From: a virus
Taxonomy: Duplodnaviria; Heunggongvirae; Uroviricota; Caudoviricetes
Length of the DNA stretch: 25,205 nt
IMG/VR virus record: IMGVR_UViG_2541047688_000007
Location: 1-25,205 of that record
Reading direction: 5' to 3' (one strand)
The translations under genes and the position numbers were made by a program. Below, in pieces: positions 3,055 to 25,205 of this stretch (its first letter is position 1; each line of letters begins with the position of its first letter). A model generated the notes under the pieces. The model was not told where the DNA came from and ran no database searches. It worked only from the letters and a program-made list of their open reading frames with translations.

Positions 3055-3131
3055 TGGCGCGTTGTACTGGATTCGAACCAGTGACCGATTGCTTAGAAGG
3101 CAATTGCTCTGTCCGGCTGAGCTAACAACGC
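3055..3131 (-). tRNA. argO: tRNA-Arg (anticodon UCU)
   Basis: Hand-folded cloverleaf on minus strand: 7-bp acceptor GCGTTGT/ACAACGC, D-arm GCTC...GAGC, anticodon arm ATTGC-CTTCTAA-GCAAT (UCU), T-arm ACTGG-TTCGAAT-CCAGT, encoded CCA; symbol by analogy with the ileZ-argN-argO cluster of Stx/lambdoid phages. Confidence 0.8.
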
Positions 3132-3144
3132 AGGATACAGATAA

Positions 3145-3221
3145 TGGACCGCCTTCGGGGACCCGAACTCCGCGCAACCAGCTTCGAAGGCTGGCGCTCT
3201 TTCCTGATGAGCTAATGGCGG
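3145..3221 (-). tRNA. argN: tRNA-Arg (anticodon UCG), possibly degenerate
   Basis: Minus-strand cloverleaf with anticodon arm CCAGC-CTTCGAA-GCTGG (UCG) and encoded CCA, but one A-A mismatch in the acceptor stem and one A-C mismatch in the T-stem, G at T-loop position 58. Confidence 0.55.
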
Positions 3222-3228
3222 TATGTGA

Positions 3229-3304
3229 TGGTGGCCCTTGCTGGATTTGAACCAGCGACCTGGCGATTATGAGTCGCTCGCTCTCACCACTGAGCTAAAG
3301 GGCC
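3229..3304 (-). tRNA. ileZ: tRNA-Ile2 (anticodon CAU, lysidine-type; formally Met-like anticodon)
   Basis: Minus-strand cloverleaf GGCCCTT...AAGGGCC acceptor, anticodon loop CTCATAA (CAU), T-arm GCTGG-TTCAAAT-CCAGC, encoded CCA; very similar by eye to E. coli ileX-type tRNA. Confidence 0.8.
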
Positions 3305-3353: not shown

Positions 3354-4403
3354 TCAAACGATTAAATCCTGAACTTCCCTGACTGTCTGCTCAAAACGTC
3401 CGGTCTCCAGTTCAACGCCAATCGCACGACGCCCGAGCGCCAGTGCCGCTTTTACCGTTGAACCTGAGCCCATAAAAAAATCTGCAACCAGGTCACCCGG
3501 ACGACTGCTTGCGCTGATTATCTGCTGCAGCATTTCTGCCGGTTTTTCGCACGGATGTTTCCCGGGATAGAACTGCACCGGTTTATGTGTCCATACATCC
3601 GTGTACGGCACCTGCGCCGTCACACCAAAATACCGCCGCAGATGCTTATATTCACTCTGCAGCTCCACATACTGCCGGTTCAGTGACGTATACGTATCCA
3701 CCAGCTGGTGGTGGGGCTTTTCCAGTTCACCGCGCTGATGTTTCTCTTCTGCCACCCGGGCAAACAGCGACTGTAATTTCAGATAATCGCTTTCGTTCGG
3801 TAGCTGCCACTGACTGGCACTGAACCAGTGCGACACCATGTTTTTCTTTCCTGTGACATCTGCAATCTGTTTTGCCGTTATCCCCAGGGCCGCGCGCGCA
3901 TCACGAAAGTAAGAAATCAGCGGGGCCATCACATGCTGTTTCAGTGCACTGCCCTTCGCCGCATACCCGGCATCTTTCGGACGATACGGCCCCTGATAAT
4001 GTTCCGCGAACAGAATGCGCTCTGTGGCGGGGAAATACGCCCGCAGGCTTTCCTTGTTGCATCCGTTCCAGCGTCCGGACGGCTTCGCCCAGATAATATG
4101 GTTCAGCACACTGAAGCGTTCACGCATCATGATTTCGATATCAGATGCCAGGCGATGACCACAGAACAGGTAAAGACTTCCGGCAGGTTTCAGCACCCGC
4201 CAGAACTGCGCCAGACACTGGTCCAGCCACTTCAGGTAATCATCGTCGCCCTTCCACTGGTTATCCCAGCCCTCAGGCTTCACTTTAAAGTACGGCGGGT
4301 CCGTGACTATCAGGTCAACAGAATTTTCGGGTAACGACCGGATAAATTCCAGGCAGTCGGCGTTGATTAACTCACAACTGGATATTTTTACAGTATTAAG
4401 CAT
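3354..4403 (-). CDS. DNA amino-methyltransferase (N6-adenine or N4-cytosine), beta-class
   Basis: 349-aa ORF with catalytic DPPY motif near N-terminus (LIVTDPPYF) and AdoMet-binding FxGxG motif near C-terminus (DFFMGSGST). Confidence 0.85.
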   Translation of the reverse strand: MLNTVKISSCELINADCLEFIRSLPENSVDLIVTDPPYFKVKPEGWDNQWKGDDDYLKWLDQCLAQFWRVLKPAGSLYLFCGHRLASDIEIMMRERFSVLNHIIWAKPSGRWNGCNKESLRAYFPATERILFAEHYQGPYRPKDAGYAAKGSALKQHVMAPLISYFRDARAALGITAKQIADVTGKKNMVSHWFSASQWQLPNESDYLKLQSLFARVAEEKHQRGELEKPHHQLVDTYTSLNRQYVELQSEYKHLRRYFGVTAQVPYTDVWTHKPVQFYPGKHPCEKPAEMLQQIISASSRPGDLVADFFMGSGSTVKAALALGRRAIGVELETGRFEQTVREVQDLIV

Positions 4404-4540
4404 GGATCATTAAGCCTGTCTCTGATAGGCTCATTCTGCTTTTGCGCAAAGCAGTGGGCCTGAGGTTTGCTTGTGAACCCAACGCATGAGCAGATGGCTG
4501 GTGGGTGCCCCTAACACCCACCAGCCGCCCATTTACCACA

Positions 4541-4567
4541 AATAAAAAAGCCTTCACTGCGGAAGGC
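4541..4567 (-). terminator. rho-independent terminator after small wHTH gene
   Basis: Minus-strand GCCTTC-CGCAGT-GAAGGC hairpin followed by TTTTTTATTT; hairpin overlaps the stop codon at 4554-4556. Confidence 0.45.
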
Positions 4568-4751
4568 GTCTGTAACAACCGAACTGATAGTCTGCCAGAC
4601 CCGCCATAACCAGCTGGGTCAGTATTAACTGGCAGCGTTCGCGTGAAAGGTAAGTATTCTGCGCTATCTCCCCGACTGTCGCCGGTTCGGTAACGCTTAA
4701 TTCATTAAACACTACTCTGGCGGTTTCTGTCATATCCTGCTGTTTTAGCAT
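4554..4751 (-). CDS. small winged-helix/HTH-like DNA-binding protein (65 aa), hypothetical regulator
   Basis: Internal ATG at 4749-4751 with AAGGGA SD; MLKQQDMTETARVVFNELSVTEPATVGEIAQNTYLSRERCQLILTQLVMAGLADYQFGCYRRLPQ has an HTH-like core; the 144-aa track form has a low-quality N-terminal extension running through a terminator and the neighbouring promoter. Confidence 0.45.
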   Translation of the reverse strand: MLKQQDMTETARVVFNELSVTEPATVGEIAQNTYLSRERCQLILTQLVMAGLADYQFGCYRRLPQ

Positions 4752-4874
4752 GTCTTTTTCCCTTTTCCGGTTAACGTGACACACCAATAACTCTTGTCGA
4801 AAAAGCCAGCAAGCTGAAAGACAGGTATTCGCAACCACCAGCACGTTTAACGTACTGCGCCGTTTTTCGGACAC

Positions 4875-4895
4875 AAAAAACCGCCTGGCGGCGGG
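4875..4895 (-). terminator. rho-independent terminator-like hairpin (minus strand)
   Basis: Minus-strand CCGCC-GCCA-GGCGG hairpin followed by TTTTTT (plus-strand A6 at 4875-4880). Confidence 0.35.
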
Positions 4896-4943
4896 TTTAA
4901 GCTGTGTGGCGTAGTAACCACTCTTAACACGATATAATATTTT

Positions 4944-4972
4944 TTGCGTACGCGTTATAGTTTTCTTACAAT
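4944..4972 (+). promoter_or_regulatory. candidate sigma70 promoter for the DUF262-HEPN operon
   Basis: TTGCGT (4944-4949), 17-bp spacer, TACAAT (4967-4972), about 30 nt upstream of the AAAGGAAC SD and ATG at 5005. Confidence 0.45.
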
Positions 4973-5004
4973 CTATTTCCAACTCCAATTAAAGGAACAG
5001 TGAT

Positions 5005-6162
5005 ATGACCACACTCAAAGAACTCAAAGAAGAGCTTGCTCAGATTCAAGATGAAAACGCGAAAAATAGAAAAAAAGCTGAAATTGCAGCCTTGGTCACT
5101 TCTGCCGACAACGAGATTAGGCTTGCTCAGAGAAATATTGGATACAACGTACGTGAATGGACCGTTGAATTAATTGTACAAAAGTATGGCAATAATCTTG
5201 AAACTGACAAAAACGAACTTTTTATTCCTGATTATCAACGCGATTACAAATGGGATATCAAAACAGCCTCTCGATTCATCGAAAGTATATTATTAGATTT
5301 TCCAATCCCGTACCTCTACATCTCCGACGTATTTAATGAAGATCCTGAGTTGGATGGTCGTGTAGAAATTATTGACGGTTCACAAAGGATTCGCTCAATT
5401 TACTACTTTTGGAACAATCAGTTTGAATTGAAAGACTTAAAAGAACTCAAAAGTTTAGAGGGCTTCAAATTTTCAGATCTTTTGGCTAGCCGCCAGAGGC
5501 GATTTTTAAGGGCATCACTAAGATTTATTGAATTGAAAGGTGATGTTGAGGAGCAGCATAGAAGAGATTTATTCGAAAGAATAAATTCAGGTGTTAAGAG
5601 ACTGGAAGCGATGGAGGTTAGACATGGTTCAGATGCGGCCACTTCAATTTTCTATAGGGATGTTGTGACTCCTTGCTCAACAAATCCACTTTTCGCTAGT
5701 CTAGCTCCATTATCAGATCGGAAACGTTCGAATGGCGATCATCGTGAGTTAGTTTTGAGATTTTTTGCATACTTAAATGATTTAGAAAATTATAAGGGTT
5801 ATGTCGCTCCTTTTATTGACAATTATCTTAATGTTCAGGCCGAAAGGGTCACACAACAAGATGTAGACAAATTTAAACATGATTTTGAAAGCATGCTTGC
5901 TTTTGTAGATGCTCATTTCCCTATGGGGTTTAAAAAGACACCAACAAGCAAAACCACCCCCCGTGCTAGATACGAAGCCATAGCAGTGGGAACTGCTCTT
6001 GCCTTAAAAGCCAATCCACATCTACAGGCTCCGGTTATTCCTGTAGGAGACTGGCTGTTTGGGGAGGAATTTGAAACCATAGTTACTGCTGATAGTGCCA
6101 ACAACACCAGCCAACTCAAAAACAGAATATTTTATGTCAAAGATAAATTATTAGGAATGTAA
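5005..6162 (+). CDS. DUF262 (ParB/Srx-like) domain protein, GmrS-type N-terminal module without recognisable DUF1524 nuclease domain
   Basis: 385-aa ORF; DUF262 signatures FIPDYQRDYKW and IIDGSQRIRS (DGQQR-type motif); no His-Me finger motif seen in C-terminal half; AT-rich codon usage. Confidence 0.75.
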   Translation: MTTLKELKEELAQIQDENAKNRKKAEIAALVTSADNEIRLAQRNIGYNVREWTVELIVQKYGNNLETDKNELFIPDYQRDYKWDIKTASRFIESILLDFPIPYLYISDVFNEDPELDGRVEIIDGSQRIRSIYYFWNNQFELKDLKELKSLEGFKFSDLLASRQRRFLRASLRFIELKGDVEEQHRRDLFERINSGVKRLEAMEVRHGSDAATSIFYRDVVTPCSTNPLFASLAPLSDRKRSNGDHRELVLRFFAYLNDLENYKGYVAPFIDNYLNVQAERVTQQDVDKFKHDFESMLAFVDAHFPMGFKKTPTSKTTPRARYEAIAVGTALALKANPHLQAPVIPVGDWLFGEEFETIVTADSANNTSQLKNRIFYVKDKLLGM

Positions 6163-6164
6163 CT

Positions 6165-6854
6165 ATGAGTTTGATTGATTTAAGAGATGAATACGAAGAA
6201 AGAGCAAGAGATATTATGGAATTGCTTTCTCTTGCGTCATCTTTAGAGGCTCAGACTCAGCAGTTAGATCAGCAAACGCATAAAGATGAAATAGAATCAA
6301 ATACCCTTAGGGTTAACATTTTAAAATCATCCGTGCACATGATGCTGTACAATCAGGTTGAAAACACTGCCAGAGGATGCATTGAGTCAATTTATGACCA
6401 TTTGCAAGATAATGAAGTAAATTACGCATCACTCAGGGAGAAATTCCAAGTAAATATCTTGCACCGTATCATTTCAGATAATGAATCGGGAAAATCTCTT
6501 TATCAAAAAATTGGTTCCGATATATCTAAAAGGATCATTTCAGCCTCATTAAACATACGTAAAGAATTCAATGGTAATGTTTGCAAGTCTGTATTGCACA
6601 AAATAACACAAGCTTACGGAATAACTGTTGCAAACTCACCAGAGTGTAGAAATGGTGTTGACTTAGATTTACTTAAAGATATCAGAAATGAGCTGGCACA
6701 TGGAAGTACCAGCTTTTCTAAAAAAGGTCAAATAGACCCTTTAGAAGAAGTCAAATCGAGGTCAGAAAGAATTGATCTATATTTGCGTTTATTAATCAAC
6801 TCAACAGAAAATTATATTACCTCTAACGGGTATTTATCCCCTCAACATGTCTGA
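6165..6854 (+). CDS. HEPN-like domain protein (putative RNase/abortive-infection effector)
   Basis: 229-aa ORF starting 2 nt after the DUF262 stop; C-terminal R-x4-H-G motif DIRNELAHG (residues ~174-180) typical of HEPN superfamily; assignment from motif only. Confidence 0.6.
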   Translation: MSLIDLRDEYEERARDIMELLSLASSLEAQTQQLDQQTHKDEIESNTLRVNILKSSVHMMLYNQVENTARGCIESIYDHLQDNEVNYASLREKFQVNILHRIISDNESGKSLYQKIGSDISKRIISASLNIRKEFNGNVCKSVLHKITQAYGITVANSPECRNGVDLDLLKDIRNELAHGSTSFSKKGQIDPLEEVKSRSERIDLYLRLLINSTENYITSNGYLSPQHV

Positions 6855-7863
6855 TAAATGTTTCCCCTATTATCTGACCAATTATAGGGGGAACAGCATT
6901 TCCAATCATTGTCCCCAATTTTTGGAATGAAAAAGGCGTCTCCTTGTCAAGGAATTTATAATCCATTGGAAAGGATTGCAAAATCGCAGCTTCACGCAAA
7001 GTTATGGCGCGATTTTGCTCAGGATGGCCAAATCGTCCATTTCCATATCCATAACACTGGGTAGTTATCGTAGGGCTAGTATCGTCCCAAACCATCCGTC
7101 CATAAACGCTTTTATAGGTAGCACCTGAATTCTTTTTATGACAGTCTGCTCTAATTTCTTCAGGCCAGTCATCCCACGTACCACCAGGTAAAGAATGCAT
7201 GATTCGTTTAAGATTGATATCCATCAATTTAGGCGAACGATGCAAGGGATCGCTTTCCAGCTTCTCACCTGCCCCTACTTTTGGCAACCTACCAATAGCA
7301 TCCTTAACAGTAACTTTACGGCTAACTTTTTTTTGATCAAGGCTGATCGGCCCCAATTGGGAACCAATTAGAATTAATCTACGTCTATTTTGAGGTAAGC
7401 CATACTCAGAACATCTTACAACGTCGTACCACAAATGATATCCAAGAGTCTTTAATGCACTAACAAACCCTTCAAAAACCTTATGGTTTCTAAGTTGAGG
7501 AACATTCTCCATCGTCACAAGCTCTGGCATTACATCACTTACAAGCCTTTGAAACTCATATAACAAACGCCACTTTGTATCGTCTTTACGGCTATTTGGA
7601 TTACGATACTTGGAAAACGGTTGGCAAGGAGCACATCCAGCAAGCAATCTAATATTTCCTTCCTTGAACATAGCAGACACATCGCAGGATTGCAGTTCTG
7701 TAACTGACTGATTAATGAACTGCGTTAAAGGATTATTGCTCTCAATAGCAAAACGGCAGGATTCATCAATATCAATACCATGAGAAACCTCAATCCCGGC
7801 TTTTTTTAGCCCAAAAGTTAAGCCCCCCGCACCACAAAAAATGTCTACTGCCTGAATGTTCAC
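6823..7863 (-). CDS. DNA (cytosine-5)-methyltransferase
   Basis: 346-aa ORF with C5-MTase motifs I (FCGAGG), IV (GCAPCQPFS, catalytic Cys), VI (ENV), QRRR and GNAV; GTG start at 7861-7863 with GGAG SD; 3' end overlaps HEPN gene by 32 bp (convergent). Confidence 0.9.
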   Translation of the reverse strand: MNIQAVDIFCGAGGLTFGLKKAGIEVSHGIDIDESCRFAIESNNPLTQFINQSVTELQSCDVSAMFKEGNIRLLAGCAPCQPFSKYRNPNSRKDDTKWRLLYEFQRLVSDVMPELVTMENVPQLRNHKVFEGFVSALKTLGYHLWYDVVRCSEYGLPQNRRRLILIGSQLGPISLDQKKVSRKVTVKDAIGRLPKVGAGEKLESDPLHRSPKLMDINLKRIMHSLPGGTWDDWPEEIRADCHKKNSGATYKSVYGRMVWDDTSPTITTQCYGYGNGRFGHPEQNRAITLREAAILQSFPMDYKFLDKETPFSFQKLGTMIGNAVPPIIGQIIGETFIRHVEGINTR

Positions 7864-7926
7864 AAGATTCTCCGTTACTTTATCCTGGTATTATATACAC
7901 ATAAAAGTTGGGAAAGTAGAACGATT

Positions 7927-8295
7927 TTACATAGAACTTAAGTCATTGTAGTAAATGAAAAATGACAAGCAGCCATCAATAAACCCCATTGCTGTTTGCA
8001 TCTCTTTCCGTATTGTTCCATCTGAACATTTCCGTTTTTTAGCAATAGCGCGTAATGAGATACCAATAACAAAGTGAGCAATGATCAACTCATACTCTTC
8101 GGGTTTATACTTTCGCAACCGAGCCACACAACCGTCTATCATGATACCTTCGTCATCATCACACTGGAGACGTGACTTTTTACCGTGTGGTAAAAGCCCC
8201 TTGAAGCCTGCTGCTATCGGCTGCCAGTCCACACCACTGTTATCTGCTGCAGCCCAGGCCCCCCAACGATCTAAAACTTCGTACATATCACGCAT
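7927..8295 (-). CDS. Q: late-gene antiterminator Q (phage 82/QuuD-like family)
   Basis: 122-aa ORF MRDMYEVLDRWGAWAAADNSGVDWQPIAAGFKGL... with Cys-rich zinc-binding-like region; resembles the small Q proteins of phage 82 and the DLP12 prophage as I recall them; last gene of the coupled early operon. Confidence 0.7.
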   Translation of the reverse strand: MRDMYEVLDRWGAWAAADNSGVDWQPIAAGFKGLLPHGKKSRLQCDDDEGIMIDGCVARLRKYKPEEYELIIAHFVIGISLRAIAKKRKCSDGTIRKEMQTAMGFIDGCLSFFIYYNDLSSM

Positions 8296-8552
8296 CAGCG
8301 CAGTACCTCCTGCACCAGTTTTTCAAACTTACCAACTCTGGTTTCCAGCTCTGCCACACAATCCACCAGCTCATCCACTGCTTTTTGTGCACGGTGTTTT
8401 GCCTGCATCAGTTCCCTGAGCGCTGGCACCATATCCCGACGAATGGCATCTTTTGTTACACCTGTTTTTTCCAGTTGTTCCGCCTGCCGCAACATTTCCT
8501 GTGCCTGTTTACGTAATTGCTCAGGGGTAAAAGTCATTGTCTGGTTGTTCAA
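8295..8552 (-). CDS. hypothetical coiled-coil protein (~80-85 aa)
   Basis: ORF overlapping the DnaB stop (TTG at 8550-8552 or ATG at 8535-8537) and the Q start (ATGA); charged helical sequence, no recognised motif. Confidence 0.45.
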   Translation of the reverse strand: MNNQTMTFTPEQLRKQAQEMLRQAEQLEKTGVTKDAIRRDMVPALRELMQAKHRAQKAVDELVDCVAELETRVGKFEKLVQEVLR

Positions 8553-9949
8553 AAGAAACGCTCCATCTTACTGCTGTCAGTTCGTTTGTTGCTGTATCTG
8601 CGCGGCTGGGGCTGTTGCATTGGGGTGGAAAGAACCTGTGCGCTTTCCTGATCCACAGGCAGAAAATGTCCGTTATAAAAACGCCGATAAATCGTCCCCA
8701 GAGAACCGTTACGTTGTTTCGTGATATTGATTTCTGCGATGCCCCTGGCCTGCGTATCCGGGTTGTACACTTCATCCCTGTAAAGCATCAGAATGATGTC
8801 TGCATCCGCCTCTATTTCTCCGGAATTTTTCAGGTCTGAGTTCATGGGGCGTTTATTGGGTCTGGACTCCACACCGCGGGAGAGCTGGCTCAGCGCAATC
8901 AACGGAAAACCACCGGATTTTGCCAGGCCTTTAAGCCCCTTTGAGATTTCACCCACGGCAAGGTCATGACGCCCCGTGGTTCGGGTTTTTATCAGCCCGA
9001 GATAATCAACCACCACCAGCGCCGTTTCCGGATGTTTAATCAGGTGATGTTTCGTTGTTGCGCATATCTCATCAATGGTCAGGTTCGCCTGGTCCACCAT
9101 CCAGATATTGCGCCCGGTCATCCGCCCCACTCCTTGTGAGAAACGTGCCCAGTCTTCGTCTTCAAAGTGAGTGACAGATTTCAGGCGTGATACCGGCATT
9201 CCTCCAGCCGCAGATACCATGCGTTCACCAATCTGGATGTTCGCCATTTCCATTGTGAACAGGAGAACGCCGTGCCCCTGTTCAGTCACCTTGTCGATGA
9301 TATCCAGCGCCAGTTCGGTTTTACCCATCGAAGGACGAGCAGCAATAAATACCAGGTCGCCGGGCTCCATGCCGCCTGTTTTTGCGTCCAGTTCATCAAT
9401 ACCGGTCATCAACGTTCTGGATTTCTCCTGTCCCTGATTCCGGCATTCAACACGCTCAACCACCTCCGGAAGCACATCATCAATATGTACCGGCTGAATA
9501 ATGCCCTTTTCCGTCGACAATGAGGCCATCATGTTCTGCGCATCCTTCAGGGCATCTTCAGCTGCTTCACAGGTATGCGCATCACGTAATTTCTGCAACG
9601 CCTCATTCAGCGTTTTTTCTGCATCGCGCAATGCGGCATTGCGCCGCAACGCTGCAACATAGTGCTCCAGTGAAGACTTCACCCAGGTTTTGCGCCCGGT
9701 ATCAGTAATCACCGGGGCAAGTTCCGGCATCTCATTACACAACAGCACAGGGTCAATCACGCCTGAAACACGGGCCTGTCTGCAGATGCCTGTGTAGATA
9801 TCCCTATACGCTCGTACAGAAAAAACGTCCGCAGGTAGTGTGACCAGAATATCCATCACTTCAGGATCTGCCCCACGCAGAAAGAACGCACCGATGACAG
9901 CGCCTTCCAGGTCATCGTTACGCCATGCCGGGGTGTTCTGGCTGGTCAT
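8549..9949 (-). CDS. replicative DNA helicase, DnaB family
   Basis: 466-aa ORF with Walker A (ARPSMGKT), Walker B-like (LVVVDYLGL) and DnaB-type N-terminal domain. Confidence 0.9.
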   Translation of the reverse strand: MTSQNTPAWRNDDLEGAVIGAFFLRGADPEVMDILVTLPADVFSVRAYRDIYTGICRQARVSGVIDPVLLCNEMPELAPVITDTGRKTWVKSSLEHYVAALRRNAALRDAEKTLNEALQKLRDAHTCEAAEDALKDAQNMMASLSTEKGIIQPVHIDDVLPEVVERVECRNQGQEKSRTLMTGIDELDAKTGGMEPGDLVFIAARPSMGKTELALDIIDKVTEQGHGVLLFTMEMANIQIGERMVSAAGGMPVSRLKSVTHFEDEDWARFSQGVGRMTGRNIWMVDQANLTIDEICATTKHHLIKHPETALVVVDYLGLIKTRTTGRHDLAVGEISKGLKGLAKSGGFPLIALSQLSRGVESRPNKRPMNSDLKNSGEIEADADIILMLYRDEVYNPDTQARGIAEINITKQRNGSLGTIYRRFYNGHFLPVDQESAQVLSTPMQQPQPRRYSNKRTDSSKMERFF

Positions 9950-10854
9950 GCGGCAACACCTCCGATACGAGAACGGTAGCTGGGCCAGTTAAACGACAAC
10001 CAGTTGCGCCCGCCATCGGTGATTCTGTCGGCAATCCGGGGACTGATGAACGCCCACAATTCTTCCGGTGAAAGGTTGCTGATCAGGATAGTTGGCAAAA
10101 TACCCTCATACCGGGCATTGATAATTTCCTGCAAAATGGCCATTTCAGCCGCACTGCCAAACTGAACGCCGACTTCGTCGACAATCAGCAAATCCAGTGA
10201 CGCATAATGCTCAATGACGTCATCCGCTGTTTTTTCACTGTCATTCCGCCAGCAGTTTTTCACAGCCCGGGTAAGGCGCATCACGTCGGTGATCTCCACA
10301 CTGGCCAGATAGTTACGGATGATGTGTTTTGCCATTGATACCGCCAGATGATTTTTCCCGGTACCGCAACTGCCGGTCATAACAAGACTGGTACCGTTCT
10401 CCAGCATATCTGGCCAGTTCTCCGCATAGCGGCGACAGGCCGCAAGATTTCTGGCTGCGTCAGGATTAACCTCCAGATAATTATCAAACTCGCAGTCCCG
10501 AAAACGCAGAGCAATTCCGGCGTTATCAGTCAGTTCTTCCGCCTTGAGGGACGACAGTTCCATGGTCAAATCACTGGCCTCAGCGATCAAGCAGTCAGGG
10601 CAGCATGAAATTTTTTCTCTGTCCTCGCCATTACGATCGATCCACACCAGTATATGCGTACGATATTTACCGTGTTTTTCGCAATATCCGCGACCTTCAC
10701 GCATCAGGCAGGAACGATAAGGCCATGGCTTTTCGCCCTTCTGAGCAAATGCAATCTCTGCCCGTAACTCATCCATTTCTGCCCGTAAATCATCCATTCG
10801 CGCCTGTAGTCTTGTTTGTTTCTCACGTTGGTCAATCGTCATCATCGCTGTCAC
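9946..10854 (-). CDS. DnaC/IstB-like AAA+ helicase loader with N-terminal Cys/His zinc-binding-like region
   Basis: 302-aa ORF; P-loop GSCGTGKNHLA, Walker B LLIVDEVG; N-terminal C-x2-H...CC-x2-C cluster. Confidence 0.8.
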   Translation of the reverse strand: MTAMMTIDQREKQTRLQARMDDLRAEMDELRAEIAFAQKGEKPWPYRSCLMREGRGYCEKHGKYRTHILVWIDRNGEDREKISCCPDCLIAEASDLTMELSSLKAEELTDNAGIALRFRDCEFDNYLEVNPDAARNLAACRRYAENWPDMLENGTSLVMTGSCGTGKNHLAVSMAKHIIRNYLASVEITDVMRLTRAVKNCWRNDSEKTADDVIEHYASLDLLIVDEVGVQFGSAAEMAILQEIINARYEGILPTILISNLSPEELWAFISPRIADRITDGGRNWLSFNWPSYRSRIGGVAA

Positions 10855-10855
10855 C

Positions 10856-11782
10856 TCAGAATGTCAATTTGTTACTGGATTTACCGAATTTGTCAGACAT
10901 GGCTCCCAGGCCAGCCAGGACATCGACCTGTCGCTGTCGCCCACCTCCGTGAGCGGCTGGCTGTTGCCAGTAATCTTCGAAGTGACGATCGGGTCCAAAG
11001 AACGTCGCAGCCTGCTTCACGAACTGTGTGCCGGTATTTCCTGTAGCACGTACCCAGGCGGCATACCGCTTCACGCCATCAAGCATGGTCTCCGGTTTTA
11101 TTCCCTCCCTGATACGGGCTTTCCAGGCTTTGAAGGCTGCAGATTTTGAATTGCCACCAGCACGTTTGGGATATTCCTGCCAGGCCTGTTCAAATTCCGG
11201 TGAATATTCCTGTCTGGCAGAACGCGCTGGTGCAGACGCGTCAGCGGATGCGCCAATATCTTGCGGTTCATGTTTTGAATTTACTGGTGGTTCATGTTTT
11301 AAACCTTGTGGATCTGGAGTCAGATTCTGAAGGGTCAAACGCGTATTTTTGCCAGAATCTGAAGGCTCAAACACGCCTGAACATACAGATTCTGACGGTT
11401 CAGATTTTGAAAGTTCAGAATCTGAAGGGTCACGTAATACTGAAAGTCTGCGCTGCTGTTTCAGTTCTGCAACCTTATCCCGCTCAGTTCTGGCAAGCTG
11501 CTCAAGCCGATCAGCATTCAGATGATAAAGATTGGACGTATTACGGTTACCTTTGCGGCGTGACTGACGCGTCAGCCAGCCATCAGCCTCCAGTTCGGAG
11601 ATTGCCGTTCTGACTGTACTTTCTCCCAATCCAAGCTGTCGACATATGGTTTCAACACCCGGGTAGCACACCCCGTCATCATTCGAATAATCAGCCAGGC
11701 GCGCCATAATCATCAGTTTTGCACCTTTGACGCCATATGCTGCGCATGCATCCCAGACATTACCGAGGATCTTGCTACTCAT
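10856..11782 (-). CDS. replication initiator, O-like (N-terminal HTH domain) containing internal iterons
   Basis: 308-aa ORF with N-terminal winged-helix region (DGVCYPGVETICRQLGLGESTVRTAISELEADGWL); position immediately upstream of DnaC/DnaB-like genes; internal direct repeats consistent with an ori embedded in the gene. Confidence 0.7.
   Translation of the reverse strand: MSSKILGNVWDACAAYGVKGAKLMIMARLADYSNDDGVCYPGVETICRQLGLGESTVRTAISELEADGWLTRQSRRKGNRNTSNLYHLNADRLEQLARTERDKVAELKQQRRLSVLRDPSDSELSKSEPSESVCSGVFEPSDSGKNTRLTLQNLTPDPQGLKHEPPVNSKHEPQDIGASADASAPARSARQEYSPEFEQAWQEYPKRAGGNSKSAAFKAWKARIREGIKPETMLDGVKRYAAWVRATGNTGTQFVKQAATFFGPDRHFEDYWQQPAAHGGGRQRQVDVLAGLGAMSDKFGKSSNKLTF
11266..11435. 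repeat. candidate iteron array / replication origin inside the O-like gene
   Basis: Two copies of GGTTCATGTTTT (11266-11300) followed by 4-5 imperfect direct repeats of CAGA(A/T)TCTGAAGG(G/C)TCA (11319-11433). Confidence 0.5.
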
Positions 11783-12003: not shown

Positions 12004-12194
12004 GGACGCACCTCCGCCGTAGTTACGTATTTAACCGGGCTACCTTTCATTGAGATGGTTTCACACATCTCTGCCGCTTTCAGTTCCGCTGTTTTTCTGG
12101 ATTTATAGCGACGGTGCCAGACAGATACATCCGTGCGAACTGATACATCGTTTCTGTATTCCGTAGTGGAGATGATGATTTCGTAACTAATCAT
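12000..12194 (-). CDS. hypothetical protein (64 aa)
   Basis: ORF with ATGA overlaps to both neighbours; no recognised motif. Confidence 0.4.
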   Translation of the reverse strand: MISYEIIISTTEYRNDVSVRTDVSVWHRRYKSRKTAELKAAEMCETISMKGSPVKYVTTAEVRP

Positions 12195-13042
12195 GGGCGA
12201 ACCTCCTTGTCAGAACCATTCAGCCTGGAATCAACAAGTGCAGCGCCAAAAACAGCATCACCAACACGGTCGTACAGTTTGCTAGCCAGCGGAGATTCAA
12301 CGGCCTTAAGCATTGGATAAAGCTGGCTTGTCCAGATTTGATGGATTTCACGCAAATGCAGGTATACGCCTCTGGCGTTTCGTGCGACAGCTGACATATC
12401 AGACGTATCGGCACCTGATAAACTCTTCTCCATCAGGTTAAAGGCGTTGATGTATGCCTCTTTGAACCGGGCAGCACGTTTACCAGTGAAGCCCATGGCA
12501 AGGAACGCGAAGCCATCGCGGGTGATTTGATAGCAAGGTAGTTTGCGGCCTGATGCGTCGGTGTATTCACTTAACACAAAATTGTGTTCAGTAAATTCAG
12601 CGGAACATTCGAGGTTTCTAATTCTATCTAAAACCCGCTCATGCCGTTTAGTAAAGTAATTAGCTACTGCAAGAGATGTGGTGACAACGCGACCATTGAT
12701 AATCGTGATTTCAGGGTGAGATTGGGTTGGGAGAGTAGTCATGGTGACAGCCCCTATGTTGAATTCAATGAACTCACCACCAAGGCTTTCCACGACCATA
12801 TAGGTGGTGAGACGTACAGGGGTGGAAATACCGGTCAACATAGAACCCGGCCCAACCGAAGTTGGCCCTGCACGCCCCACCATAATTTGGGCGTAACGAT
12901 GCTCATGACACGAAAAAACCGCATGAGCGCGGTTGTGCTCTATATTGAATTTCGGGTTTCCACGCCCGGCACCCGCTTTATAAGGTGCAGAGACAGTGTA
13001 ACGTCCCGAAATTGCAGAATCAATATGCTGGTGGCGGATCAT
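12191..13042 (-). CDS. Rha-family phage regulatory protein (paralog 2)
   Basis: Core ITIINGRVVTTSLAVANYFTKRHERVLDRIRNLECSAEF...ITRDGFAFLAMGFTGKRAARFKEAYINAFNLME matches the Rha (Phage_pRha) pattern as I recall it; ~100-aa N-terminal extension whose first residues are shared with the upstream paralog. Confidence 0.7.
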   Translation of the reverse strand: MIRHQHIDSAISGRYTVSAPYKAGAGRGNPKFNIEHNRAHAVFSCHEHRYAQIMVGRAGPTSVGPGSMLTGISTPVRLTTYMVVESLGGEFIEFNIGAVTMTTLPTQSHPEITIINGRVVTTSLAVANYFTKRHERVLDRIRNLECSAEFTEHNFVLSEYTDASGRKLPCYQITRDGFAFLAMGFTGKRAARFKEAYINAFNLMEKSLSGADTSDMSAVARNARGVYLHLREIHQIWTSQLYPMLKAVESPLASKLYDRVGDAVFGAALVDSRLNGSDKEVRP

Positions 13043-13701
13043 AGGTGCACCTCCCGTTGATTACGACGGAACGCGGAGTGACCCTGGACGGTTTCAGCCT
13101 CATGGAATGCTTCAATACAGCTCTCGTAGTACCGCATTGTGCGCAGACTTAACCCAAGCTGAAGCATCATCAGACCATCAAGGGTGATGTAATAACCACG
13201 CAGGGAGTCACCGTAGATGTGATAAGTACCCGGTATGAAATTGCGGGTAAAAAACTCGCGTGAGCAGTTCAGATACTCGATTTTGTCGACGATGTTCTGG
13301 TGCATGCGCTTAAAGTGGCAGGCAACATGCAGGGAGAAAATAACGGCCTTGCCGTTGACAACTTCAATTTTGAGGAATGGGGAAGTTGGGACTGTAGCCA
13401 TGATGGCAGCCTCCGTTGACTGTGGAAAACTTCCACCACCGGAGCTGCGAAACTCACTGGTGGCAGACTGAACAGGGTTCGCAGTACCGGCGTCAACGGA
13501 GACCGGCGAGCCTTTCGGCTCCCCTGCCCAGCCCACCATAATTCTGGCGTGCGTGAGCGCGGACGATAAAAAAGACGCTGGCGCGTCATATATCGCCGTT
13601 GACAATTCCGGGCTGCGACCCCCGGCACCCGCTTTATAAGGTGCAGAGACAGTGTAACGTCCCGAAATTGCAGAATCAATATTTGGTCTTGAAATGATCA
13701 T
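13039..13701 (-). CDS. Rha-family phage regulatory protein (paralog 1, divergent)
   Basis: Core EVVNGKAVIFSLHVACHFKRMHQNIVDKIEYLNCSREF...ITLDGLMMLQLGL resembles the Rha domain; N-terminal DSAISGRYTVSAPYKAGAG shared with the downstream paralog. Confidence 0.6.
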   Translation of the reverse strand: MIISRPNIDSAISGRYTVSAPYKAGAGGRSPELSTAIYDAPASFLSSALTHARIMVGWAGEPKGSPVSVDAGTANPVQSATSEFRSSGGGSFPQSTEAAIMATVPTSPFLKIEVVNGKAVIFSLHVACHFKRMHQNIVDKIEYLNCSREFFTRNFIPGTYHIYGDSLRGYYITLDGLMMLQLGLSLRTMRYYESCIEAFHEAETVQGHSAFRRNQREVHL

Positions 13702-16585: not shown

Positions 16586-16763
16586 CATAATCGCCGCTTC
16601 GCCCTTCAAGGTACATGCGAACATTTTTATCAATCATTGCGGAAACAGTCTCAATATGAAAACACTTCTGAGACTCGCTATATAGCAGAACTGAAGTGGT
16701 TTACTGAATTTGGCCACCTGAACAGAGGTGATATGCTCACCTCAGAACAACACAGGTGCCATA

Positions 16764-17911
<1,148 letters not shown>

Positions 17912-22188: not shown

Positions 22189-22520
22189 AGAATGAATAAA
22201 GCATTTGAACGATGGGTCCACCAGCGTTACGGCAATCGCTATGACCTGACGCGAGATGTTGACGGCTTCTACTGTCGTGAAGTTGTGAAGCGAATGTTTG
22301 AAGTGTGGTGCCACTGCCGTGGGCTGAGTGTTGTGTGAGGTAATACATGGGCAATGTGATTCAACTGGCTCCCAATGAATGGGTTTGTGAAAGCGTTCTT
22401 ATCGCAATTACCGGGCTCAAACCAGGCACAATTCTTCGGGCCCGGAAATGAAGTGGTTTACTGAATTTGGCCACCTGAACAGAGGTGATATGCTCACCTC
22501 AGAACAACACAGGTGCCATA

Positions 22521-23668
<1,148 letters not shown>

Positions 23669-23891: not shown

Positions 23892-25205
23892 ATGGATAAA
23901 GTCAAATATCCAACAGGCGTCGAAAACCACGGCGGCACATTACGCATCTGGTTTAATTTTAAAGGTAAACGTGTCAGGGAAAATCTTGGTGTCCCTGACA
24001 CTGCCAAGAACAGGAAGATCGCCGGGGAACTGCGGACATCAGTATGTTTTGCCATCCGCACAGGAAGCTTTGATTATGCTGCACAGTTCCCTGACTCCCC
24101 CAACCTTCAGGCTTTTGGGGTAAGTAAAAAAGAAATTACGGTGAAGGAACTTGAAGAAAAGTGGCTGGATCTGAAACGAATGGAAATCTCTGCAAATGCA
24201 TTCAATCGCTATGAATCCGTTGCAAGAACGATGGTTCCGAAAATTGGAGGCAGTAGACTGGTGTCATCGGTAACCAAAGAGGAATTGCTGTATATCAGGA
24301 AAGATTTGCTGACCGGGTATCAGAATTCAACGAAAAACAAAGCAGCAGCAAAAGGACGGAGCGTCGTTACTGTAAATTATTACATGACGACAATCGCTGG
24401 AATGTTTCAGTTTGCTGCAGATCACGGTTACTTAGAAGCAAATCCCTTCCAGGGAATTAAGCCTCTTAAAAGAGCCAGGGCAGAGCCAGATCCGCTAACT
24501 CGTGACGAATTTATTCGCCTGATAGATGCTTGCCGACATCAGCAGACGAAAAACCTGTGGTCATTGGCTGTGTACACAGGAATGCGTCACGGTGAACTGG
24601 TCTCCCTGGCCTGGGAAGATATCGATCTGAAGGCAGGAACAATTACCATCAGGCGCAATTATACGAAACTTGGTGAGTTCACTCTACCGAAAACTGAAGC
24701 AAGCACAAACAGGGTTGTGCACCTTATCCAGCCCGCTATCAGTGTCCTGAAAAATCAGGCTGAAATGACAAGACTGGGTAAGCAGTACAACATCAAGGTG
24801 CAACTACGTGAATATGGACGTTCAGTGAACCATGAATGTACTTTCGTGTTTAACCCTCAAGTGGTTAGAAAAAGCGAACAGGTAGGTTTTGTCTACAAAG
24901 TCGATTCTGTAGGTGACTCATGGGAAACAGCCATTAAGCGTGCAGGGATCAGGCATCGAAAGGCATACCAGTCACGACACACTTATGCGTGCTGGTCATT
25001 ATCTGCCGGAGCAAACCCAAGCTTCATTGCCAGCCAGATGGGCCATGCAAGTGCCCAGATGGTATTCAATGTATACGGAGCATGGATGACTGACAGCAAT
25101 GCAGAACAGATCGCAATGCTGAATCAGAAGCTGACAGATTATGTCCCAATGATGCCCCATAGTCACCAAAGTGACACCAGAGGCTTATTAAAATCAGTAA
25201 GTTAA
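23892..25205 (+). CDS. int: tyrosine site-specific integrase (phage integrase family)
   Basis: 437-aa ORF with GGAGG SD; N-terminal arm-binding-like region; catalytic residues in TGMRHGEL (Arg), HRKAYQSRHTYA (His/Arg) and VYGAWM (Tyr); complete, stop TAA at 25203-25205. Confidence 0.9.
   Translation: MDKVKYPTGVENHGGTLRIWFNFKGKRVRENLGVPDTAKNRKIAGELRTSVCFAIRTGSFDYAAQFPDSPNLQAFGVSKKEITVKELEEKWLDLKRMEISANAFNRYESVARTMVPKIGGSRLVSSVTKEELLYIRKDLLTGYQNSTKNKAAAKGRSVVTVNYYMTTIAGMFQFAADHGYLEANPFQGIKPLKRARAEPDPLTRDEFIRLIDACRHQQTKNLWSLAVYTGMRHGELVSLAWEDIDLKAGTITIRRNYTKLGEFTLPKTEASTNRVVHLIQPAISVLKNQAEMTRLGKQYNIKVQLREYGRSVNHECTFVFNPQVVRKSEQVGFVYKVDSVGDSWETAIKRAGIRHRKAYQSRHTYACWSLSAGANPSFIASQMGHASAQMVFNVYGAWMTDSNAEQIAMLNQKLTDYVPMMPHSHQSDTRGLLKSVS

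Follow-up and report, generated by a model that had tools for sequence, protein, structure and literature searches.

What do two DNA methyltransferases of different chemistry do next to each other in the late region of a tailed phage, and do they belong together? The question is raised by positions 3354–7863 of the window (the whole stretch of DNA analysed, 25,205 nucleotides, IMG/VR record IMGVR_UViG_2541047688_000007), where the original prediction had placed two orphan enzymes of anti-restriction, adjoining a DUF262 protein and lacking an adjacent recognisable restriction endonuclease. Both reading frames proved to be present and intact, with Pfam scores far beyond chance (N6_N4_Mtase, E 2e-44, profile positions 1–219 of 221, for the DPPY-containing N6 enzyme; DNA_methylase, PF00145, E 1e-53, profile positions 2–322 of 324, for the PCQ-containing C5 enzyme), and the DUF262 neighbour was confirmed by its match to GmrSD_N (E 1e-25, residues 69–206). 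The late-region placement was also borne out. On the minus strand the replication genes are followed by the Q antiterminator gene, a three-gene cassette, a 65-aa ORF, the N6 methylase gene, three tRNA genes, and the holin and lysozyme genes (table 1). The interval is part of an E. coli prophage carrying two independent modules, in which the methylase genes are mere unrelated neighbours. On balance we favour, with moderate confidence, a reading in which the N6 enzyme is of the M.EcoGII type and the C5 enzyme belongs to a separate, mobile, restriction-modification-like cassette of 3 kb.

Table 1. Features of the locus, in window coordinates.
Feature	Position	Strand	Remarks
Three tRNA genes (Arg-tct, Arg-tcg, Met/Ile-cat)	3055–3304	−	ARAGORN, Rfam, phage annotations ileZ/argN/argO
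Beta-class N6-adenine DNA methyltransferase, M.EcoGII family	3354–4403	−	349 aa; backbone late gene outside the cassette
65-aa conserved backbone ORF	4554–4751	−	phrog_331, PHROG E 1e-37, unknown function
Terminator-like GC-rich hairpin, then T-run	4881–4894	−	terminator scan
Three-gene low-GC cassette	4930–7920	.	2,991 bp; between Q stop codon and backbone
Candidate sigma-70 promoter of the DUF262-HEPN operon	4944–4972	+	TTGCGT, 17-nt spacer, TACAAT; read from sequence
DUF262 / ParB-like NTPase-fold protein, NsnA-like	5005–6162	+	proposed sensor
MAE_28990-type HEPN nuclease	6165–6854	+	229 aa; proposed effector
Overlap of convergent 3' ends, HEPN and C5 methylase genes	6823–6854	.	32 nt; ORF coordinates, sequence
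C5-cytosine DNA methyltransferase	6823–7863	−	346 aa; proposed modification component of the cassette
63-bp spacer, candidate methylase promoter	7864–7926	−	between Q stop codon and C5 methylase start
Antiterminator Q	7927–8295	−	Pfam Phage_antitermQ, E 3e-47; flank marking the insertion slot

The N6-adenine methyltransferase

The motifs of the N6 methylase (DPPY at residues 34–37 and FxGxG, as FFMGSGST, at residues 309–316 near the C-terminus) are in the order of the beta class. Comparison with M.EcoGII yielded 330 identical positions out of 350 (94%) over the full 349 residues with two single-residue gaps, a count in which one or two mismatches may be reading errors, since the M.EcoGII sequence was machine-read from the PDF of Table S1 of PMC11551740. 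The enzyme has the same length (349 aa) as M.EcoGII and M.EcoGI of the E. coli O104:H4 prophages (Murray et al. 2018, PMC5778455), the same order of DPPY motif, target-recognition domain and FxGxG motif, and a similar location in an E. coli lambdoid prophage. It differs from M.EcoGII by about 20 substitutions, concentrated in the central residues 148–275, the region of the target-recognition domain. The gene has a GC content of 52.9%, and its region is approximately 94% identical at the nucleotide level to phage 1720a-02, named as the carrier of a very similar methylase (PMC5778455).

M.EcoGII, a characterised enzyme of E. coli prophages, methylates adenine without sequence specificity. It is described as being silent in the lysogenic state and is presumed to protect phage DNA against restriction; M.EcoGI, which differs from it at 16 of 349 residues, has also been reported to be non-specific. 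By extrapolation from the 94% identity the present enzyme would be non-specific as well, bearing in mind that most of the differences fall in the target-recognition region, and identity together with late-region position suggests that it would be silent in the lysogen. It lies downstream of Q and of the terminator-like hairpin, in the direction of the late genes, and would probably be made only after induction. It would then modify the DNA of the progeny broadly and thereby protect it from many of the restriction systems met in the next host.

No linked nuclease was found for the N6 methylase. The gene is part of the conserved lambdoid late backbone. Among 5426 complete E. coli genomes, 2366 contain its region, and in only 103 of these is the cassette beside it, as would be the case for an orphan. 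The ‘two classes side by side’ that had been singled out as a notable pairing are therefore an accident of insertion. The proposal of an orphan, anti-restriction role survives for this enzyme, which has no linked nuclease and is 94% identical to M.EcoGII, and is not supported for the C5 methylase, which has conserved DUF262 and HEPN partners. The N6 methylase is another allele of the M.EcoGII family, routine and already explained.

A cassette in a variable slot of the late region

The cassette stands out by its GC content (38.1%, versus 48.5% in the rest of the window). Homology with the phiP27 and Stx-phage backbones breaks sharply at approximately position 4929 and is picked up again in Q. 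Both ends of the cassette recur in the cassettes of S. bongori and Y. mollaretii prophages; Klebsiella prophages have its left end in common as well. In phiP27 the same slot is filled by a GIY-YIG nuclease gene. The slot beside the backbone N6 methylase gene is, as judged from these alignments, a variable insertion site. The hairpin lies inside a backbone stretch (approx. 4881–4929) that alignments showed to be common to phiP27, which is without the cassette, and to Yersinia and Klebsiella prophages; this stretch is a candidate late-operon leader/terminator region. The 65-aa ORF carries a CDS annotation in strain FAH as well as in phiP27, and the tRNA trio sits downstream of the N6 methylase gene in the same arrangement as in Stx-type phages. 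In the RefSeq record of phiP27 the 65-aa ORF is named ‘TrmB family transcriptional regulator’.

Both promoters of the cassette are candidates, recognised as conserved sequence patterns. That of the DUF262-HEPN operon, which a generic promoter scan did not pick up, carries the palindrome GCGTACGC (4946–4953) within its spacer and is kept in the enterobacterial cassettes; the copies of Vibrio and Pseudoalteromonas have a box resembling TATAAT. The 63-bp spacer ahead of the C5 methylase holds a TATAAT box (7895–7890) and a GGAG ribosome-binding site, in a stretch that is also conserved in the cassettes of S. bongori and Y. mollaretii.

The proteins encoded by the cassette

The DUF262 protein contains three motifs of NTPases of the GmrSD, BrxU and SspE type (QR, DG(x)QR and FxxxN). 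GmrSD_N is its only Pfam domain, with no nuclease domain detected by Pfam, and in the structural model the C-terminal half is predicted to be helical, with no nuclease match. Structural matches of the protein include BrxU (ranked first), SspE and DndI, and among PADLOC models the best is NsnA (E 6e-46, residues 16–313), PD-T4-2_A being matched with E 4e-27.

The gene stops 2 nt ahead of the start of the HEPN gene, an ORF lying between the DUF262 and C5 methylase genes that the original prediction had missed. The HEPN protein matches PF18737 (E 4e-16; 60.4 bits against a cut-off of 26.8) and PF18735 (E 7e-8), with an Rx4H motif (R174-x4-H179) in which both residues are invariant, and belongs to a family of approximately 700 clusters at 50% identity. 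No PADLOC defence model was matched, PD-T4-2_B included, and raising the cut-off to 10 only yielded a marginal RT-associated HEPN (E 0.008). PHROGs lists both the DUF262 and the HEPN protein as ‘unknown function’.

The C5 methylase has motifs I, IV, VI, VIII, IX and X in order (FCGAGG, GCAPCQPFS, MENV, QNRRR, REAAILQSFP and GNAVPP), conserved across 45 non-redundant orthologs, and matches the PADLOC models MTase_II (E 2e-87) and DrmMII (E 4e-85). Across phyla, no part of the protein is better conserved than its target-recognition region. Restriction-modification specificities normally diversify, and a fixed target region is unusual.

Linkage, mobility and partner swapping

The association of the three genes was followed in 80 distant loci from many phyla (23–37% HEPN identity), 77 of them informative for the methylase. 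The DUF262 gene is directly upstream of the HEPN gene in all 80. Of the 77 informative loci, 69 have a C5 methylase adjoining the pair, and three gene orders occur. The methylase is orthologous (approx. 50% identity) and adjacent in 64 of the 80 loci, either convergent (41, with recurrence of the end-overlapping layout of the HEPN and methylase genes), co-directional downstream (12) or co-directional upstream (11); the other methylase-bearing loci comprise one cut by the contig end, one fragment and three with more distant C5 methylases. In 66 complete trios the three proteins diverge in step, their pairwise identities being correlated (Pearson 0.91–0.98, Spearman 0.63–0.80). Carriers of the trio include a Tn7-like element, lambdoid prophages of Yersinia, Salmonella and Klebsiella, and a Vibrio integrase/AlpA/VapE island, and an M.EcoGII-like neighbour is absent in the six other settings of the trio for which the neighbouring genes were compiled (Yersinia, Salmonella, two Klebsiella prophage types, Vibrio and Pseudoalteromonas). 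Thus, both in descent and in transfer between genomes the three genes stay together across phyla.

When the search was anchored on the methylase, 121 informative loci were obtained, 86 of which contain the full trio and 35 the methylase only. In the latter, nearby genes encode a GHKL ATPase (22 loci), a Vsr endonuclease (16), a NERD-UvrD helicase (4) and an SNF2 helicase (3). Since the methylase-only loci mostly adjoin such candidate restriction modules, the DUF262-HEPN pair appears to fill the position of one.

These data bear directly on the view of the original prediction, namely that both methylases are orphan anti-restriction enzymes; the DUF262 gene, together with the overlooked HEPN gene, would then be an unrelated neighbouring moron, perhaps a type IV-like system against modified phage DNA. 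No classical restriction endonuclease fold was found next to either methylase, phage orphan methylases are common, the N6 enzyme being one, and Dazbog and GmrSD-type DUF262 systems have been linked to modified DNA. However, adjacency of the C5 methylase in three gene orders, co-divergence and joint movement on unrelated elements all speak against it, and a sensor targeting 5-methylcytosine beside a 5-methylcytosine writer would be self-destructive, so that we regard this view as highly improbable. An orphan status of the C5 methylase was rejected on the 64 of 80 distant loci and on the 86 of 121 methylase-anchored ones. Sensing of modified DNA by the DUF262 protein was a fair lead, but linkage to its own methylase points to self-marking rather than to type IV restriction. 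What looked like a ‘second orphan methylase’ of the prophage is better annotated as the modification component of a candidate defence system, which PADLOC v2 does not model as a unit.

Eight of the 77 informative loci, all cyanobacterial, have DUF262-HEPN pairs with intact motifs and no C5 methylase within the 1.5–6 kb of flank available on each side; a sister locus of these pairs retains only a 75-aa methylase fragment. Either the absence of a neighbouring methylase does not make these pairs lethal, or the methylase is encoded elsewhere in the genome. This observation is of importance for the possibility that the cassette is mainly an addiction (post-segregational killing) module stabilising the prophage, transposon or island that bears it, the loss of which would dilute methylation and leave the remaining DUF262 and HEPN proteins to attack the cell, with phage defence secondary or absent. 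Such a role would suit the constant presence of the trio on mobile elements, its movement as a compact unit that has putative promoters of its own, and a convergent overlapping layout that resembles selfish type II restriction-modification systems. We consider it improbable, because pairs that have lost the methylase and yet remain intact argue against strong killing upon such a loss, and a related pair, PD-T4-2, protects its native strain against phage.

The cassette was found in 107 of the 5426 complete E. coli genomes, ST131 strains included, with matches over at least 80% of its length in all 107, and one Klebsiella pneumoniae variant is indexed in 761 blocks of an assembly collection. In clinical Enterobacteriaceae it may influence the host range of phages, the outcome of phage therapy and the uptake of DNA. 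Being only 3 kb long and self-contained, it is directly clonable and easy to test.

Proposed function of the cassette

Gene content, motifs, folds, cassette borders, linkage across phyla, co-divergence, mobility and the exchange of partner modules are observations. In the working model, for which we infer the identities of sensor and cutter, the substrate cut, the protective role of methylation and the timing of expression of each gene, the C5 methylase would place its mark at a single fixed target in resident DNA. Reading of DNA would fall to the ParB-like DUF262 NTPase, which on detecting unmarked incoming DNA would engage the HEPN nuclease to cut nucleic acid, most likely RNA. Cutting would stop the invader or abort the infected cell, and the lysogen would be protected and the element stabilised. 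The assignment to a restriction-modification-like class is suggested by genomic linkage and partner swapping, and the methylase-less pairs urge caution. In its most specific form the model would describe a widespread, horizontally mobile immune system in which self-marking by 5-methylcytosine controls an RNA-cutting HEPN protein through a ParB-like NTPase sensor, with one fixed target throughout the family, from cyanobacteria to enterobacteria; we put this form forward tentatively, as possible rather than probable. If true, it would combine restriction-modification logic with an abortive-infection output and a fixed specificity instead of the usual diversifying ones.

Several points go against a restriction-modification reading, namely the methylase-less cyanobacterial pairs, the conserved target region of the methylase and a HEPN protein outside the PADLOC models. 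Furthermore, PD-T4-2 is active in K-12 from a cloned fragment that has no methylase, and the characterised DUF262 enzymes GmrSD and BrxU attack modified, not unmodified, DNA.

Another possibility is a defence licensed by the self mark, after the manner of SspE and DndI. The 5-methylcytosine marks laid down by the methylase of the cassette would be bound by the DUF262 protein as a licence or anchor that sets its NTPase state, and the HEPN protein would act on unmarked DNA or transcripts, methylation being needed for activity beyond protection. The DUF262 domain of SspE indeed senses the host's phosphorothioate mark, triggering the NTPase and activating the nuclease domain. Structural matches of the present protein include both of these enzymes, and a methylase target region that is invariant across phyla would suit a sensor co-adapted to one mark. 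By taking into account that intact pairs persist without a nearby methylase, that PD-T4-2 works without one and that binding of 5-methylcytosine is putative, this mechanism has little probability in our estimate.

A different division of labour was outlined by Anantharaman et al. (2013), whose computational work lists MAE_28990 operons in its Table 1 and with which the cassette shares the PF18737 HEPN domain, the Rx4-6H motif and the ParB-fold and methylase neighbours. By analogy with PrrC, the DUF262 protein would be the DNA-cutting restriction subunit working with the C5 methylase, and the HEPN protein a latent suicide RNase, held inactive by the restriction pair and released when a phage neutralises restriction. 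However, in GmrSD, BrxU and SspE the DUF262 domain is the NTPase/sensor and cutting is carried out by a separate DUF1524 domain, which is absent here. Furthermore, DUF262 and HEPN are never apart (80 of 80 loci) while the methylase may be missing, a pattern that a sensor-effector pair fits better. A PrrC-like arrangement is therefore held to be unlikely. The 2013 entry consists of one table line and the general proposal, without the gene orders, mobility, methylase subfamily, exceptions and prophage context given here; the gene association was thus noted in 2013, and no experimental study of the trio was found in the literature.

Comparison with characterised systems

A precedent for the working model is PD-T4-2 of E. 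coli ECOR65 (Vassallo et al. 2022), an experimentally validated anti-T4 system of E. coli in which a DUF262 gene is likewise followed by a HEPN gene, with PF18735 listed as its HEPN domain (PMC10952713). PD-T4-2 is a two-gene system of 1.54 kb cloned with no methylase, whereas the cassette has a 1.85-kb core and a dedicated C5 methylase. The cassette DUF262 protein is also closer to NsnA than to PD-T4-2_A, and its HEPN protein does not match PD-T4-2_B.

With Menshen (NsnABC; Millman et al. 2022; Li et al. 2025, PMC12065111) the cassette shares the NsnA-like ParB-DUF262 protein and the helical C-terminal region, but it lacks the NsnB ATPase and the NsnC effector, in whose place the HEPN protein stands. 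The cassette bears on a question raised by Li et al. (PMC12065111), namely whether a ParB-DUF262 sensor that has a methylase as its partner can recognise unmodified DNA. As for GmrSD, BrxU, SspE and DndI, the N-terminal fold and the QR, DGxQR and FxxxN motifs are shared. The DUF1524 His-Me nuclease domain of GmrSD-type enzymes is replaced in the cassette by a separate HEPN protein as the nuclease, and while GmrSD and BrxU target modified DNA, the DUF262 protein of the cassette is linked to a methylase of its own.

Genetic setting of the two methyltransferases

A lambdoid prophage of E. coli makes up the window (see table). The stretch 3354-8000, searched as two pieces (4400-8000 and 3354-7900), was found at 100% identity in the chromosomes of FAH and a number of other strains. 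In Stx phages the toxin genes lie downstream of the tRNA genes that here follow the N6 (adenine) methylase gene.

Features of the prophage
Feature	Position	Strand
Holin, DUF1327, lysozyme and Rz genes (after the tRNA genes in minus-strand order)		-
STnc100 sRNA family	2780-2979	-
Three tRNA genes	3055-3304	-
N6 methylase gene	3354-4403	-
65-aa ORF	4554-4751	-
GC hairpin and T-run	4881-4894	
Cassette	4930-7920	
Palindromes in candidate promoter spacer	4946-4955	+
DUF262 gene	5005-6162	+
HEPN gene (229 aa)	6165-6854	+
C5 methylase gene	6823-7863	-
Antiterminator Q gene	7927-8295	-
Replication genes (O-like, DnaC-like, DnaB-like)	8549-11782	-
Ash/Rha-family ORFs	12191-13042, 13039-13701	
C4 antisense RNA then isrK RNA, two tandem copies	12800-12988, 13456-13644	-
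Insertion-sequence-like element, two direct copies	16688-17911, 22445-23668	+
Integrase gene	23892-25205	

Some other features of the prophage were also recorded. The STnc100 match is full-length (139 bits, E 6e-31) and falls in the interval that separates the tRNA genes from holin. The C4/isrK copies (Rfam, 59-82 bits) lie within or adjoin the two Ash/Rha-family ORFs and resemble a c4-ant immunity module of P1/P7 type that has been duplicated. The copies of the insertion-sequence-like element, which encodes a 272-aa transposase with the Pfam rve integrase core domain, are 5757 bp apart and bracket the early-left genes upstream of the integrase gene; gene offsets, with approximately 1254 bp extra in the window, suggest that the otherwise matching FAH prophage is without the first copy.

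The original prediction was of two orphan DNA methyltransferases side by side, next to a DUF262 gene. Both methylase ORFs are indeed complete, with the Pfam families matched end to end (E 2e-44 for the N6 and 1e-53 for the C5 enzyme) and all catalytic motifs present, and the DUF262 assignment was correct (GmrSD_N, E 1e-25). The orphan reading stands for the N6 enzyme, which belongs to an already known family, and fails for the C5 enzyme, which has partner genes in its cassette.

The N6 methylase

The N6 methylase is identical at 330 of 350 positions (94%) to M.EcoGII, both proteins being 349 residues long, when compared with the M.EcoGII sequence printed in Table S1 of the SUPREM supplement and machine-read from the PDF (PMC11551740). 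M.EcoGII is prophage-encoded, methylates adenine in any sequence context (PMC5778455), stays unexpressed during lysogeny and does harm when its expression is forced. Its sister M.EcoGI, differing at 16 of 349 residues, is likewise reported to be non-specific, and an ST131 allele, M.EcoMV, gave no detectable signal in a lysogen methylome.

Together with the 65-aa ORF and the tRNA genes, the N6 gene forms a conserved backbone with 93-94% nucleotide identity in many Stx-type phages, among them phage 1720a-02, which is named in the M.EcoGII paper (PMC5778455), and the region is found in 2366 of 5426 complete E. coli genomes. The gene has the orientation of the lysis genes and lies downstream of a GC hairpin and T-run that belong to a stretch also present in phiP27, so that its expression is likely to be late and Q-dependent.

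The cassette and its borders

At 38.1%, the cassette is lower in GC content than the N6 gene (52.9%) and the remainder of the window (48.5%), and homology to the phiP27 and Stx-phage backbone stops at approximately 4929 and restarts in Q; on these sequence features the C5 methylase is evidently resident in an inserted cassette. The corresponding slot of phiP27, bounded by Q and the 65-aa ORF, is occupied by a GIY-YIG nuclease family gene (L087, 3454-4683, minus strand); phages of this kind thus appear to accommodate varying accessory or defence genes at that point.

The cassette is present in 107 of the 5426 E. coli genomes, each copy matching along 80% or more of its length, as two alleles (at least 99% identical in 73 genomes, about 87% in 34), and in 103 of the 107 it adjoins the N6 gene. 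Since the N6 gene is nearly always found without the cassette, the adjacency of the two methylases reflects a landing site rather than a joint function. A functional link between them was rejected: of the settings outside E. coli, the six with listed neighbours show no M.EcoGII-like gene beside the trio, and the trio is nearly always missing where the N6 gene occurs.

Both non-coding ends of the cassette are common to prophage cassettes of Salmonella bongori and Yersinia mollaretii, and the left end also to those of Klebsiella prophages. At the left end, TTGCGT, a 17-nt spacer and TACAAT precede the DUF262 gene, and at the right end a TATAAT box and a GGAG site precede the C5 methylase gene. 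Conservation across cassettes makes these candidate promoters suggestive; a generic promoter scan picked up nothing at either end of the cassette, and its site count was below that of shuffled controls. The perfect palindromes GCGTACGC and ACGCGT lie inside the spacer of the candidate DUF262 promoter, are kept in the Yersinia and Klebsiella cassettes and not in that of S. bongori, and might serve as an operator or as a site sensitive to methylation.

Linkage of DUF262, HEPN and C5 methylase genes

Taken as a whole, the finding is a DUF262 and HEPN system with a dedicated methylase. The gene association was published in 2013 (Anantharaman et al. 2013); no study, experimental included, of the DUF262, HEPN and methyltransferase trio was found in the literature, papers on V. 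cholerae WASA and on DefensePredictor proving to have no bearing on it, and PADLOC v2 has no dedicated model of it.

The trio with a close HEPN homologue recurs in a Pseudoalteromonas Tn7-like element, in a Yersinia prophage (between Q and holin), in an S. bongori prophage, in two kinds of Klebsiella prophages and in a Vibrio integrase/AlpA/VapE island. A HEPN profile scan of one genome per species yielded 80 loci at 23-37% identity from cyanobacteria, proteobacteria, Collinsella, Bacteroidota, Leptospira, Micromonospora and others. A DUF262 ORF lies directly upstream of the HEPN gene on the same strand in all 80, and an orthologous C5 methylase (phmmer E below 1e-90) is adjacent in 64, being convergent downstream in 41, co-directional downstream in 12 and co-directional upstream of DUF262 in 11. 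The remaining loci have an ortholog cut by the contig end (one), a methylase fragment only (one), a more distant C5 methylase (three), none in the flank examined (eight) or are indeterminate because of a contig end (three).

Persistence of the linkage through these changes of gene order argues for a functional tie among the three predicted proteins, and the same linkage far outside E. coli contradicts the orphan status proposed for the C5 methylase. When pairwise identities were compared among 66 complete trios, those of the three proteins were correlated with one another (Pearson 0.91-0.98, values inflated by near-identical Collinsella loci; Spearman 0.63-0.80). The median identity to the window protein is 40% for DUF262, 25% for HEPN and 51% for the C5 enzyme.

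The C5 methylase with and without its partners

In the reverse test, in which a methylase profile was run against metagenome and viral collections and loci flanked on each side by 2.2 kb or more were kept, the full trio was found on 27 metagenome and 59 viral contigs, and the methylase without the pair on 21 and 14, respectively. The neighbours in these 35 methylase-only loci include a GHKL ATPase (HATPase_c_3, 22 loci), Vsr (16), a NERD-UvrD helicase (four) and a SNF2 helicase (three), so that the C5 subfamily behaves as a shared modification module for various candidate restriction partners, DUF262-HEPN being one of them. The association with Vsr suggests that the subfamily makes 5-methylcytosine in vivo.

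The pair-less orthologs (loci L095-L253, about 50-55% identical; for example, L206:5242-7551, minus strand, and L170:3924-4466, plus strand) mostly lie beside a GHKL ATPase of 550-760 residues, often with a Vsr mismatch endonuclease, and such loci resemble a separate candidate module of the restriction-modification-like kind, assembled around this methylase.

Among 45 non-redundant orthologs, conservation of the enzyme is highest from motif VIII to motif IX, the region containing the target-recognition domain; this points to one specificity probably shared by all. In PDB sequence and profile searches the catalytic half aligns to HaeIII, HhaI and DNMT1; the target could not be read from these known structures, only the segment before motif IX aligning, to DNMT1. 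The ST131 EC958 methylome paper lists Dcm and M2.EcoMI as the only C5 methylases and is uninformative for the cassette enzyme.

The DUF262 and HEPN proteins and a proposed mechanism

All three motifs known from the NTPase domains of GmrSD-type proteins are retained (as PDYQR, DGSQR and FERIN) in the DUF262 protein, whose structural model (pLDDT 81) best matches BrxU, PadC, ParB-N, SspE and DndI. Its C-terminal half is helical in the model, with no nuclease match, and the DUF1524 domain is absent. The PADLOC hits of the protein are to Menshen NsnA (E 6e-46) and to PD-T4-2_A (E 4e-27); neither system fits as the identity of the cassette, only parts of each being matched, through the DUF262 protein. 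The HEPN protein matched no PADLOC model or NCBIfam family; its family comprises 699 representatives at E up to 1e-10 (50%-identity clusters), and PHROGs labels both proteins 'unknown function'.

HEPN enzymes usually act on RNA. We infer that the C5 methylase would mark resident DNA, that the DUF262 NTPase-fold protein would distinguish marked from unmarked DNA, and that the HEPN nuclease would be the effector, with RNA, given this habit, as its most likely substrate. The linkage data, the swapping of partners around the methylase and the precedent of PD-T4-2, a validated anti-T4 system of E. coli consisting of DUF262 and HEPN (Vassallo et al. 2022), are among the grounds on which the cassette is best read, from sequence comparison, as a putative restriction-modification-like defence unit.

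PD-T4-2 functions without a methylase, whereas the window cassette carries a dedicated one, and GmrSD and BrxU target modified DNA. Moreover, eight of the 77 informative loci, all cyanobacterial (L008, L011, L019, L024, L030, L034, L035 and L043; DUF262-HEPN at about 4700-6700 in most), have an intact pair with all motifs and no C5 methylase in the flanking sequence, which extended roughly 1.5 to 6 kb to either side; Nostoc carneum NIES-2107 (AP018180.1) is one of the genomes concerned. Because of these three observations some weight is left, beside the linkage and partner swapping that favour the restriction-modification-like reading, to a PrrC-like layered system, which is unlikely, and to an SspE-like system licensed by its own mark or a mainly addictive module, both of which are rather improbable.

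In four of the methylase-less loci, from Nostocales (L024, L030, L034 and L043), the pair comes after the same large chromosomal gene, which suggests that these pairs are vertically inherited. In the Dolichospermum locus L014 a 75-aa methylase remnant is all that is left, the sister loci L026 and L036 having the full gene.
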